Assembly (NCBI GenBank): GCA_002269645.1
Contig: NIVC01001340.1
Location: 124,001-188,000, forward strand
DNA: 64,000 nt
Origin: Macrostomum lignano
Taxonomy: Eukaryota
Direction of reading: 5' to 3'
A model generated the notes under the pieces. That model did not search any database and had not been told where the DNA came from. It was given only the letters and a program-made list of their open reading frames with translations. Position numbers and translations under genes: made by a program. This document shows positions 24,151 to 63,855 of this stretch, piece by piece (position 1 is the stretch's first letter; the number at the start of each line of letters is the position of its first letter).

Positions 24151-24500
24151 TGACCTGCTTCAGCCATCTTTCTAGCAAAATATTTACGCAATTATTAGGC
24201 GTTGAATAAGCTTTAATTTATTTACTAAATTAGTAACTTTTTGAGATAAATTGATTTAAAATTGCTTAGCAACACTGATTAGACATCGCCTTACCGTTGA
24301 CTGAAATTGTTTCGATCGTAGCAGCCTAAAAGCAGATGTATGGTTTAAAAAATGCTTCGATTTACTTTTTATGCATGACTCAGCTTTAAAATGACACCTC
24401 AGCCACCACAAAAGACTGCGCTGATGCTGATATATTCGACACTAAACATTGCTTTTGCGCAAGCTCACATTCGAAAGTTTTACTGATTTTTATCGATATT

Positions 24501-25186
24501 AGTAGAATGCATGAGGGGGCTTCTGGGACAAAATTTTTCACCTCCTCCATAATCCACCTAAATCCATCCATATTATCCCTGACAGAATCAGAAAAAAGGG
24601 GGGTCGCACTCGCTCACAAAACGTCCTCCATAATCCCATTAAATCCATCCATATTATCCCCGACAGAATCTTGAAAAAGGGGAGGGGTCGCACTTGCTCT
24701 GAAAACTTCGAACATAATCCCATTAAATCCATCCATATTATCCCTGACAGAATCAGAGCATAACAGTAGGACACCTGTTATGCTCACTGAGACTGACATC
24801 CACCCATAGCATCTTCGAAACAAACAGAAAATAATCTGCATTCTTCTCCCCACATTCAATCCGAAGCGGCAAAACCACTTCCCTAAGACTTTAAATTATC
24901 AGCGCAGGGTCCTCACCTTTGAAAAAAAATTAAATTCTGAATAAAAATGTTTCCAGTTGTATCTCCAGGTTCTTATTACAAAGCGCACGAACCCAATTAC
25001 AAGAGTAAGTACCGATGTAAACTAGAATGCAGTGAGTACATGAGAAAATATTGGCCTGACGTTGATATCAATGTCTCTAATATTAATCAAGCTCTCCAAA
25101 GACACTGGTTTCATAAGTATGGAGTAACCTATGTAAAAGACTACGACAGCTACTATAACTTTGCAGAAGTTATAAGGCAATTGTAA
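24501..25186 (+). repeat. Left terminal inverted repeat (about 690 bp) with three internal ~80-bp repeats
   Basis: Reverse complement of 61317-62000; CATAATCCCATTAAATCCATCCATATTATCCCTGACAGAATC occurs 3 times. Confidence 0.97.
24947..25186 (+). CDS. TIR-encoded hypothetical protein, 79 aa (left copy)
   Basis: AAAAATG start as in other element genes; open in both TIR copies despite substitutions and a 3-bp indel. Confidence 0.6.
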   Translation: MFPVVSPGSYYKAHEPNYKSKYRCKLECSEYMRKYWPDVDINVSNINQALQRHWFHKYGVTYVKDYDSYYNFAEVIRQL

Positions 25187-25192
25187 TTTTTC

Positions 25193-25821
25193 TCACATTC
25201 TCTCAATGATCAACGTCAATACAAACTCTTCCCCATTAAAATCAACGCCCATCCCATCTTCAGTCTCAAACTGTAGCACAATCTCGTGAATCTCCTTATT
25301 ACTCAATACAACTCTTTTCACTGGATTGGGTTTCTCTACCACCATCTGTCCTCCAGCTACAGAGTTGGAGATGTTGTACAAAATATTAGTTCGCTTTCCC
25401 TTAAATACCCAATCAAGACTGAGATTAGTTCTGATTAGAATATTCAAACCCTTTACAATGTCTGCTATATTGGGTGCTAAGAACAAACCGCGTACACTTT
25501 CTCGGGCCATGCTAACGGCCCCCGTCGCTTGAGTGACAGTCCGCGCCGCGGATTCTGCCTTATAAACTTTCTTCTCGAATCCTAATTCCCTATACCAAGT
25601 GTCATCTTTAAAATCAACCTCCGCATCTTTGTGAACTTGCATGACCACTCTCATTACAGTGAGATCATAGGATAGTTTGACAGGGAACAGTTTTTTATCT
25701 GGCTTACTCGCATCAGGTGTCTCAAAATGGCCTCTTTTAGTAAAGACGTTTTCTAGAAAGCAATTGTAGGTATCCACACTTTGCGTGCTAACAGGGAATA
25801 CCACAGGTTCTGCTGCTGCAC
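25193..25821 (-). CDS. Minor capsid (penton-like) protein, 3' part, separated from its 5' part by the RTE insertion
   Basis: NILIRTNL...GKRTNILYNI...G.MVVEKP...I.EI.LQF..EDG..VDFNGE..VLTL.I resembles the Polinton mCP C-terminus; joins 29327-29561 in frame (287 aa). Confidence 0.85.
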
Positions 25822-25858
25822 AACAACAACAACAAAATACGCGGCCCCGCAAGCAAAG

Positions 25859-60822: not shown

Positions 60823-60985
60823 TATGCTGCACATGATTTTTACGAAAGTTCGTGAAAATCATGTAACCATTGAGAGCCGCTTTATGCTGCACATGATTTT
60901 TACGAAAGTTCGTGAAAATCATGTAACCACTGAGAGCCGCTTTATGCTGCACATGATTTTTACGAAAGTTCGAAAAAATCATGTT
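60823..60985. repeat. 60-bp tandem repeat x3, each with a 34-bp palindrome
   Basis: ACATGATTTT-T-ACGAA-AG-TTCGT-G-AAAATCATGT; partial fourth copy at about 61232-61258. Confidence 0.92.
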
Positions 60986-61316
60986 ATCAGTGGGAATCGA
61001 ACCATGTAATCGAACCATGCGGGGCAGACTGAAACCGGTTTCGGGCTTGTTTGCCCTCGTCAGTCAGTCATGGCCACGCGAGGTCGACTCCACCTCTAGC
61101 CAGCTGAGTGGAACTGCTATTTATGCGCCCTTGCACATGGCGACATTTTCTAGTCCACCATGTGAGGAATTCGCGCCATGTTCAAATAGCTTTACTATCA
61201 GTAAGCTATCGCTTACAAATGTAACCAATACGAGCCGCTTTATGCTGCACATGATTTTGTCAGTATTTTTAGATCTTGCGTCTGCACTCTACAGGGTAAA
61301 ACCTTGTAGTTGGCTA

Positions 61317-61553
61317 CTACAACTGCCTTATAACTTCAGCAAAGTTATAGTAGCTGTCAAAATCATTAATGACTACTCCATATTTATGAAACCAGTGTCT
61401 TTGGAGAGCTAGATTAATATTAGGGACATTGATATCAACGCCGGGCCAATATTTTCTCATGTACTCACTGCATTCTAGTTTGCATTGGTACTTACTCTTG
61501 TAATTAGGCTCGTGCGCTTTGTAATAAGAACCCGGAGAGACAACTGGAAACAT
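61317..61553 (-). CDS. TIR-encoded hypothetical protein, 78 aa (right copy)
   Basis: Diverged inverted copy of 24947-25186. Confidence 0.6.
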   Translation of the reverse strand: MFPVVSPGSYYKAHEPNYKSKYQCKLECSEYMRKYWPGVDINVPNINLALQRHWFHKYGVVINDFDSYYNFAEVIRQL

Positions 61554-62000
61554 TTTTATTGAGAATTTAATTTTTTTTCAAAGGGTGAGGACCCTGCGCT
61601 GATGATTTAAAGTCTTAGGGATCTGGTTTCGCCGCTTCGGATTGAATGTGGGGAGAAGAATGCTGATTATTTTCTGATTGTTTCGAAGATGCTATGGGTG
61701 GATGTCAGTCTCAGTGAGCATAACAGGTGTCCTACTGTTATGCTCTGATTCTGTCAGGGATAATATGGATGGATTTAATGGGATTATGTTCGAAGTTTTC
61801 AGAGCAAGTGCGACCCCTCCCCTTTTTCAAGATTCTGTCAGGGATAATATGGATGGATTTAATGGGATTATGGAGGACGTTTTGTGAGCGAGTGCGACCC
61901 CCCTTTTTTCTGATTCTGTCAGGGATAATATGGATGGATTTAGGTGGATTATGGAGGAGGTGAAAAATTTTGTCCCAGAAGCCCCCTCATGCATTCTACT
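61317..62000 (-). repeat. Right terminal inverted repeat
   Basis: Reverse complement of 24501-25186. Confidence 0.97.
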
Positions 62001-63855
62001 GATATTTGATCAGCTGCTGTGTTTTTGTTTTTCGTCTGAGCGTGAGGTAAGGCCGGCTGGTCTGTCTCGGGACAAAATTTGTGCCGTGACCAGGATAGCG
62101 TTGTCTGTGAGGGTGTTTATGAGAGGGGTGTTGTGAAAGTGTAAGCTAGTGTCGTTTTACGTCTTTGTTTTTCTGTCGGTGTCGAGCGTACGATTGCGCG
62201 CTGTCGTGATGGGGGACGAAGGTGTGAATAGGCTCGTGGACGTGGCTTTCGGCGTCAGTTCGTCGGTCGTTGCAGCAGGACATCAATGTGTGGCGCAGAA
62301 TGTACATGTATAGCGGCCAGCAAAGCCCCCGATGTACTAGCTTATACGAGCTACTGTATATGAGATAAAAACAATCAGATAAGGCACATTGCAAGGAATT
62401 TCCCGTCGGGAAACTTCAGCGGAGGTCCTGGGAAGGGGAGCCAGGGCCTCTGATCCAAGAAGCCGAACCTCCCCTAATTGGTGAGCTGGCCTAGCAGGAA
62501 GTCGAACGTCCGAGTCTGACAAATGCACCGACGACGATAACGAGAAACTGGTTCTTAGTTCCAGGTCGGGGGCTTTGGATTGTAGCAGGCCCAAGCCAAG
62601 ATTCCAATTTAGCCCAAAATTAATGACAGCACTAGAAGTCGAGCATGGCCGAACCGCTGTTAAACTAATTGGAACTAATTAATCGGCTTCGTTCGTCTCA
62701 GACAGAAACGAGCCCTCAGCCGCGACTGCCTAGAAACAGTTTTGAGGTGTGTTACTTATGATGTTGGCTGGCTGGGTATAGCGATACCTCAGGATTTAAA
62801 TCAGTTCAAATAGAAAGCCTCCTACATCTAAGTAGAAAGCGCTCGTCCGACGTGCTGATGCAGGTGACTAAATAATTGCACAGAGCCCTTTAACAAGTGA
62901 CCATTGTCAGCAAAAATTACATGTACTTCGTATCCAATTGTCGGCAACGAGCGCGTGCTCCAGTGAGGCAACGTTCGACCGTATCTCAATGAAAAGTACA
63001 TTGTAAGCGCCACCGCCACGTCTTTATATGTTTATTCGTGGTTGGTTTCGGTAATCGTATTGTGAGTAGGGCCGACTGAGTCAGCTGGGATGTGCAACGC
63101 GAACTCGCACGGCAGCATGAATTTAGACTCGGTTCGGCTAGGGCGGCAGAAGCCCTCCCGCGTTCGTTGCCCTCATGAAGTGTAGCGAACGAGGAATGAT
63201 CGCCCTTTGGTAGACGTCTCGGACACAGCAGCATAAATTGATGAATTGATGAGGATGAACTTTTTCGATTTTAATAATAATAGAATCGCAGCTGGGTTCT
63301 CATCGTCATCTTACATTCTTACTCGTAGCAGTCTATAGGTTAGGGTTTTTTCTTCTTAATTTTGGAGTTTTTAGCTATTCTGAATAAGGTATACTGTACT
63401 TCTTTTTTAATCTGTTTTTGTTTGCGTCTGCGGTCATACATCTCGTCTCAAATATCAATTTTGATTTACAACCACGCCAAAGCATTGGAAAGTGCAATCT
63501 TCAGACAATTTTTTCTCCAATTTTTTACTCATTTCGTGGTTTATGTTTGTCTATAGCCATAGAGATCTAGAACTAGAACCTAGCTACTAGATCTAGATTT
63601 CCTTGGCCTAGCTGTCATTTTGGCCCTCATTTTTTCTCTTCCATTCAACTATAATCACCACCCATCAAGCCCGGAGCGTACCATTCACGTCTTTCCCCCA
63701 AAGCCAAGAGTGTAGATCCATTGTCTCTGCCCCCCTCAAAGACATGAGTGTACATTCAATAAGTCTGGGGGATAGCTAGAGCTTTCATTGCAACCTGTAC
63801 ACTCATCACATGCGTGTTTTAGCTAGCTTGAACCATTTTAGTATAAGGATTCTAT

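Follow-up and report, generated by a model that had tools for sequence, protein, structure and literature searches.

A nested and probably decayed Maverick/Polinton copy in the flatworm Macrostomum lignano

A stretch of 64,000 nucleotides of the Macrostomum lignano genome (assembly GCA_002269645.1, contig NIVC01001340.1, positions 124,001 to 188,000; hereafter the window) holds a Maverick/Polinton element whose genes are interrupted by foreign mobile DNA. We read it as one copy of about 14.8 kb, likely inserted by its own type of integrase, belonging to a likely high-copy family and likely decayed in place, with a long interspersed nuclear element (LINE) and a train of Helitron-type units inside it, and put the probability of this reading at roughly 0.8. 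A sequence-only reading of the same DNA had called the element complete, which holds for the gene inventory, both terminal inverted repeats (TIRs) and the target site duplication (TSD), but not for the coding capacity, as nine of the 14 genes are broken. The window copy alone is incapable of integration, replication and particle building.

Ends, length and gene content

The element is bounded on both sides by identical copies of the TSD GATATT, for which a chance match of a 6-mer calculated from the base frequencies of the flanks has a probability of 5e-4. Both termini read AGTAGAATGCAT, in agreement with the AGTAG ends proposed earlier, and the terminal motif AGTAGA found at both of them is a near match to the (AGT)2 or (AG)3 given for vertebrate Mavericks in PMC8097293. 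The inverted ends pair over 691 aligned bases at 95.1%, with 99.7% between the arms in the outer ~320 bp and about 91% in the inner ~370 bp. The lengths previously given for the LINE plus one copy of its TSD (3,505 bp) and for the Helitron train (19,152 bp) were both reproduced, and their subtraction from 37,500 bp correctly leaves 14,843 bp, a value that is accurate to some tens of bases owing to the ambiguous train boundary, short indels and variable repeats. The resulting native length of ~14.8 kb lies within 13-25 kb and the TIRs within 100-1,500 bp, the ranges stated for Polintons in 10.1101/2023.08.22.554363; likewise, the TSD is within 5-8 bp and has the usual size of 6 bp, and pPolB, an rve integrase, capsid proteins, a protease and an ATPase are present. 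The two halves of the element hold complementary, non-duplicated genes, and the GC content of the viral segments is equal (0.41, 0.405 and 0.408, versus 0.64 in the LINE). Together with the matching TSDs, this makes a single insertion the best reading.

Profile or structure matches support each member of the gene set that had been proposed, comprising the virion genes for the major and minor capsid proteins (MCP, mCP), protease and packaging ATPase as well as pPolB, integrase and PLA2 (Table 1), and the gene order is the one reconstructed before. Two gene names had to be revised. The supposed VI-like gene is a pX/mu-like gene instead, and the gene of the "hairpin-protein" exists but is more exactly described as a conserved two-helix, SLATT-like gene, which matches profiles of its counterparts in two related loci, L007 and L008, at E 1.1e-9 and 1.5e-6, with weak SLATT hints besides. 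The MCP was modeled with AF2 from a 68-row alignment (pLDDT 89.6), after an earlier model with pLDDT 52.6 had been discarded as too poor. Among double jelly roll (DJR) capsids, the predicted structure is best matched (VIA) by a PBCV-1 capsid chain, with Z 25.1, a root-mean-square deviation of 3.5 and 343 aligned positions. The MCP falls under the cut-off of PF21738 (E 3e-4), and within BFVD it matches DJR proteins at just 6-13% identity with no close adintovirus hexon among them, although such a hexon may exist. Downstream of its in-frame stop, pPolB has an open part of 1,104 aa, and the columns of the A/B/C motifs are conserved in the alignment with its relatives. PDB sequence searches with the MCP profile, pPolB and PLA2 returned noise at E~0.8 at best, and scans of NCBIfam, PHROGs and Rfam yielded little beyond the Pfam assignments.

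The labels of orf409, the core gene, the coiled-coil gene and the open reading frames (ORFs) within the TIRs are positional, with no supported family behind them. No significant match was obtained for orf409 in Pfam, NCBIfam, PHROGs or relatives' profiles, the core ORF stayed below significance against a profile of relatives' core genes (E 0.11), and the TIR ORFs had a homologue in none of Pfam, NCBIfam, PHROGs and the 35 related loci; across the same 35 IMG/VR loci, counterparts of orf409, the core gene and the coiled-coil gene were equally absent (0/35 each).

Among the nine broken genes, mCP is interrupted by the LINE, and the train splits the coiled-coil gene, which has frame breaks as well. 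A single frame break occurs in each of orf409, the SLATT-like gene, pX, integrase and PLA2, and pPolB contains an in-frame stop. The ninth is probably the ATPase, whose 5' end appears to be damaged because the open stretch contains no ATG before Walker A. The MCP, core and protease genes and both TIR ORFs are open. In terms of established Maverick biology (PMC8502044, PMC8097293, PMC11071308, 10.1101/2023.08.22.554363), the staggered cut of an rve integrase would generate the 6-bp TSD, pPolB would replicate the element starting at the TIR ends with a protein as primer, the particle would be the work of MCP, mCP, ATPase and protease, and PLA2 and pX would likely serve entry and core packing.

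Table 1. Features of the Maverick element and its inserts (positions in the window; aa, amino acids; RT, reverse transcriptase)
Feature	Position	Strand	Remarks
Left TSD	24495..24500		GATATT
Maverick element	24501..62000		37,500 bp; host Macrostomum lignano
Left TIR	24501..25186	+	~690 bp; 84-bp subterminal repeats in outer ~320 bp
Left-TIR ORF	24947..25186	+	79 aa, open; no family match
mCP, C-terminal part	25193..25821	-	Profile of four relatives' mCPs, E 5.4e-12
LINE	25822..29316	-	Endonuclease and RT; interrupts mCP gene
mCP, N-terminal part	29327..29561	-	Profile of four relatives, E 1.5e-13; tblastn matches in 6/35 related loci
MCP	29583..30869	-	428 aa, open; predicted double jelly roll
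orf409	30900..32130	+	Gln-rich; frame break near 31,400-31,460
Putative core protein	32147..32569	+	140-aa open ORF; repeated GSG/GNG motifs; named from position and motif
A32/FtsK-type packaging ATPase	32743..33564	+	PF04665, 27.5 bits (cut-off 22.8); matches in 19/35 loci
Coiled-coil gene, 5' part	33581..34028	+	Frame breaks; 84-bp internal repeat, one unit, at its end
Helitron-type train	34029..53180	-	19,152 bp; at least three units, read as non-autonomous; interrupts coiled-coil gene
Coiled-coil gene, 3' part	53181..53460	+	First part is second unit of the 84-bp repeat
Two-helix, SLATT-like gene	53494..54230	+	Frame break near 53,950
Adenain-type cysteine protease	54235..54636	-	133 aa, open; PF00770, 21.9 bits (cut-off 21.3); 17/35 loci
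pPolB with endonuclease-VII insert	54695..58561	-	In-frame stop at ~58,465, near 5' end
pX/mu-like gene	58696..59192	-	PF05829, E 3.5e-7, 30.4 bits (cut-off 25); frame break near 59,060
rve integrase	59209..60233	-	PF00665, 34.6 bits (cut-off 32.6); frame break near 59,420
PLA2, parvovirus-type	60264..60760	+	Stand-alone, without pX tail; PF08398, E 1e-10; frame break near 60,340
76-aa ORF	60788..61018	-	Over 60-bp tandem repeat; doubtful gene, outside the 14
Right TIR	61317..62000	-	
Right-TIR ORF	61317..61553	-	78 aa, open; paralogue of left-TIR ORF
Right TSD	62001..62006		GATATT

Copy number, decay and rival readings

The right arm of the element was found in 20 of 24 listed public runs, with 0.38-0.56 of the sequence words matched and one organism label common to all 20, and contigs from four of these 20 runs were compared with positions 52200-64000 of the window, covering the right arm and its flank. 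Relative to single flank contigs, single element contigs showed depth ratios of 60-194x in run X4 and 34-97x in run X6 (four ratios each), from which, contig depth being inexact, only a range of tens to low hundreds of family copies (roughly 30-200) can be derived. The element is thus likely a member of a high-copy, near-identical Macrostomum lignano family. The listed element pieces differ from the window copy at 29 of 2,136 and 15 of 1,049 letters, about 1.4%; 40 of the 322 letter rows and 12 of the 76 indel rows of this comparison were examined. Close to each of the four frame breaks of the right arm, no more than a few bases away, the contigs show an indel row, for three of the breaks in all four runs, and the frame breaks look mostly private to the window copy or to its assembly.

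On the protein level, 19 of 166 sites of MCP depart from columns common to all six of its close relatives, against 2-13 of 149-160 for the relatives themselves, a difference that speaks for decay. For pPolB, 29 of 202 near-invariant columns deviate. These latter departures were set aside as a measure of decay, since the region 55380-55609 contains four departures but only two contig differences, by which many of them would be lineage traits.

Within the TIRs, a single difference in the outer 320 bp stands beside 30 in the inner 370 bp. The codon differences between the two TIR ORFs comprise nine synonymous and five non-synonymous ones (P 0.004 against neutral); as the excess in the inner part is mostly synonymous, it likely predates the insertion. 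The inner arms would accordingly have diverged already while the lineage was active, and the outer arms would have been kept alike after insertion, most likely via gene conversion, in which one arm acted on the other or further copies of the family took part. Near-identical outer TIRs around a decayed interior are a warning against dating Maverick insertions by TIR identity.

Several observations weigh against a single copy that decayed where it stands. At 1.35% decay per arm, 8.6 differences would be expected between the outer TIRs (P 0.002 for the one seen in 320 sites), and this deficit makes in-place decay dependent on an extra homogenising step that is so far hypothetical. The integrase break has no indel row in two of the four runs. 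Nine of the 18 usable listed differing sites, drawn from the examined letter rows, are third codon positions, and part of the 1.4% may therefore be subfamily difference rather than decay. In addition, contig depth is a rough guide that gives no exact copy number, and among the contigs, which were compared over the right arm and flank only, no contig or long read spanning the locus was seen.

A very young copy, near intact apart from its inserts, with frame breaks that are mostly unpolished long-read errors and a 1.4% difference that is subfamily variation, would agree with the nearly identical outer TIRs, the perfect state of all TSDs and the high share of third codon positions. It would also suit the LINE ORF, which likewise slips frame near its 3' end, and the absence of frame breaks from MCP, protease and the long pPolB core. 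We nevertheless consider it unlikely, because pPolB has an in-frame stop, MCP deviates from conserved columns more often than any of the other six close rows, and unique flank contigs in X1 show zero differences over about 1 kb; moreover, only five of the nine indel sites listed fall within runs of at least three, compared with a background of 34% (P 0.15). Less credible still is a history in which the element decayed and gained LINE and train elsewhere, the dead 37.5-kb unit then being copied to this site recently by pPolB and integrase acting in trans, with its outer TIRs reset on the way. Such copying would explain why the outer ends look young although the interior is decayed, and a deep family could supply the proteins, but the unit exceeds the 13-25 kb range of Polintons, no other copy was seen to carry these LINE and train inserts, and gene conversion accounts for the outer ends more simply.

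The possibility that the halves stem from two copies, brought together either through misassembly or through recombination spanning the repeat-rich train, is raised by a duplication of 76 bp at 88%, the sole overlap between the halves, by inner TIRs that differ by about 8%, and by the 19 kb of repeats forming the train within a numerous family. The 6-bp TSDs, matching at P 5e-4, argue against a two-copy origin, and parts of one and the same coiled-coil gene flank the train. At the overlap, contigs in two of the four runs (X1, X4) run back 84 bases, and loose ends in X1 lead into left-half-like sequence, which identifies the 76 bp as a native tandem repeat of the coiled-coil gene that received the train insertion. 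As this 84-bp repeat is present in public-run contigs, the duplication was no longer taken to indicate a chimera, and joined halves appear very improbable compared with the single inserted copy that we favor.

As a separate observation, the public-run contigs contain a number of internal deletions in the outer TIR at 61576-61963 and are deeper there, a hint at short non-autonomous derivatives or at a variable number of the 84-bp repeats.

Relatives, placement and novelty

A word-indexed search with MCP gave nine matches, seven at 68-76% and two at 42-43% identity and none with an informative name, and a profile search of 1.84 billion representatives gave 565 at E 0.001. In a tree of 100 rows, including 99 full-length relatives chosen from both searches, MCP belongs to an 11-row clade of unnamed proteins (41-76% identity; stem 0.69, full support) and is at most 26% identical to the tree rows outside this clade. 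None of 30 relatives looked up by cluster carried an informative protein name. MCP-based locus scans retrieved nothing from 110 pattern matches in viral contigs or from 239 and 233 in metagenome contigs, and a single-protein locus scan with pPolB scored 0/6.

The pPolB search returned 3,632 matches, the best 120 of which share 38-47% identity over the searched part; the named ones come from Mytilus, Sycon and two snakes. Median identity of the window protein to its best matches is 40%, versus 50% among the matches themselves. In a 43-row tree, its branch inside the endonuclease-VII group is long (1.04), and rows of the PF03175 type, L034 among them, stand separately. The pairing of the window protein with L026 was flagged as a long-branch join and left unused. 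Endonuclease VII occurs in 14 of 15 aligned pPolBs. PF03175 gave no match on the window pPolB and is found in one of the 15 aligned rows, 42 of the 120 best matches carrying this annotation, and no VSR-type Pfam match was obtained on the window pPolB or its 14 aligned relatives. The family would accordingly represent the endonuclease-VII (insect-like, "group II/Alpha-like") class of pPolB with a capsid clade of its own.

With Mavericks/Polintons in general (Orthopolintovirales; adintoviruses, PMC8502044), the element shares TIRs, a 6-bp TSD, a length of ~15 kb, pPolB, rve integrase, DJR MCP, mCP, adenain, FtsK/A32 ATPase, PLA2 and a pX-like domain, and its broken state is not exceptional, considering that 96% of vertebrate genomic Maverick copies are described as degraded (PMC8097293). 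It differs from known Mavericks by its macrostomid flatworm host, the divergent MCP, the AGTAGA termini and an ORF inside each TIR. PLA2 and a pPolB without detectable VSR insert are common to it and to the Mayetiola class (Alpha), or insect group II; PMC8502044 lists snakes and Mytilus as Alpha adintovirus hosts, and five loci with fused PLA2-pX (L021, L022, L023, L030, L032) have pPolBs 36-41% identical to that of the window. Unlike Alpha, the element encodes PLA2 (+) and pX (-) as separate genes and thus lacks the PLA2X feature, and its MCP is only 19-20% identical to the MCPs of L022 and L023, two loci serving as proxies for the Mayetiola cognates. The general architecture and the 6-bp TSD are shared with vertebrate group I, or the Terrapene class (Beta), from which it is set apart by the undetected VSR insert, group I pPolB carrying one of ~140 aa (PMC10328495). 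Pfam scans, which lack the reference profiles, gave no GasderminX/cupiennin-type match. The element is thus a Maverick that leans to the group II/Alpha polymerase class but is without the PLA2X feature, and we assign it to neither genus.

A PLA2 motif is present in 10 of the 35 IMG/VR loci, fused to pX in five of them and not in the other five. Three loci of 15.6-17.6 kb (L001, L007, L008) encode this gene set as well, PLA2 being stand-alone and pX a gene apart, along with ATPase, mCP, MCP and protease, at identities of 36-38% for pPolB, up to 40% for protease and 30-35% for ATPase. In L007 and L008, pPolB is directly followed by protease and the SLATT-like gene, as in the window. The three differ in overall gene order and in MCP, which is 21-24% identical and belongs to another clade. 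L007 is itself a TIR-bounded, Maverick-like contig (TIRs at 1-545 and 15303-15847; 549 bp, 98%) with stand-alone PLA2, separate pX and SLATT-like gene, most of which recur in L001 and L008. In Fig. S2 of PMC8502044, the maps for Hydra and Stylophora likewise bear a SLATT label.

The proposal of an undescribed lineage is likely rather than proven, and gains from the divergence of MCP from everything outside its unnamed clade. The HMM and phylogeny check that had been suggested for it gave the unnamed MCP clade and the long pPolB branch, within a comparison that did not extend to the Repbase and adintovirus reference sets. In the literature covered, which did not include Repbase and subscription journals, no description of a Macrostomum Maverick/Polinton was found. 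The words Polinton and Maverick do not occur in the text and five supplements of an M. lignano retrotransposon paper (PMC12801592), and no flatworm term occurs in the portion of the supplement of Starrett et al. 2021 (PMC8502044) that precedes the tables and protein files. A 2026 preprint (10.1101/2025.04.19.649669) reports Orthopolintovirales insertions in Rhabditophora without naming species in its main text, and its supplements may cover the family of the window. Overall, as compared outside Repbase, the element is likely an undescribed flatworm Maverick lineage.

The special value that had been ascribed to this single locus for rebuilding a virus could not be upheld. Since the window copy is pseudogenised and its family apparently high-copy, the informative material is to be sought in the other copies, whereas this locus is a fossil from a common class of elements. 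What it offers is a pointer to a large, young family in an animal used as a model of regeneration; the capsid of this family lies far from any that has a name, and its layout with PLA2 and pX split recurs in unnamed aquatic elements. It is rather doubtful, though worth stating, that M. lignano carries a recently amplified, undescribed Maverick family of ~100 copies, some of them intact and particle-making, with its own capsid clade, in which relatives at 70-76% come only from unnamed environmental and run assemblies. If so, and if intact copies are transcribed and packaged, a culturable and transgenic flatworm would make it possible to test in a laboratory animal whether animal Mavericks are transmitted like viruses or move solely as transposons.

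Nested inserts and flanking sequence

The LINE is recognized by its endonuclease (PF03372, E 1.4e-9) and RT (PF00078, E 2e-28) domains and is bordered by identical 10-bp TSD copies at 25812-25821 and 29317-29326, spaced 3,505 bp apart; its 3' end has a (TTG)n-type tail. Its 5' end (29049-29325) consists of 16 near-identical (99%) tandem repeats of 17 bp, a unit which, on the LINE strand, may resemble a splice-acceptor tract.

The junctions of the Helitron-type train lie at about 34029, 48642 and 52802, and its last end at 53180. On the minus strand, these ends (34029, 48642, 52802, 53180) carry TC starts and CTAG with a nearby hairpin, which at the first end amounts to -5.4 kcal/mol with a z of only -1.5; none is significant at the third. 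The insertion has no TSD, its left junction fits the A/T rule, and an A follows the right junction. Owing to the absence of a Rep/helicase match among the train ORFs scanned, the units are read as non-autonomous. The train contains satellites, a decayed RT, an ankyrin ORF and a Crypton-like recombinase. The ankyrin-repeat ORF (41484-42188, +) is open and intronless (Ank_2, E 5.5e-43) and possibly a captured host gene. The recombinase, an open tyrosine recombinase ORF of 453 aa (43334-44695, -) within 42397-46933, shows weak matches to QRICH1, Phage_integrase and XerA and is surrounded by nested inverted repeats (78 nt at 97%); a second, decayed recombinase piece at 46120-46347 is 43% identical to it. 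At 37122-39920, a (GATA)n array of 1.84 kb adjoins a decayed C-terminal RT fragment on the minus strand and may be the tail of a second LINE.

Outside the element, positions 62066-62083 of the right flank resemble TIR bases near 24529-24540 (GGGACAAAATTT), which may be due to chance. The left flank contains a TIP41-like coding stretch (20174-20734, -) that matches a Macrostomum lignano protein at 100% identity and served to assign the host. To its left, 1630-20144 is filled with dense minisatellite arrays of 16-43 bp and GC-rich, ORF-like stretches between them; the arrays are perhaps minisatellite-filled introns of a host gene.

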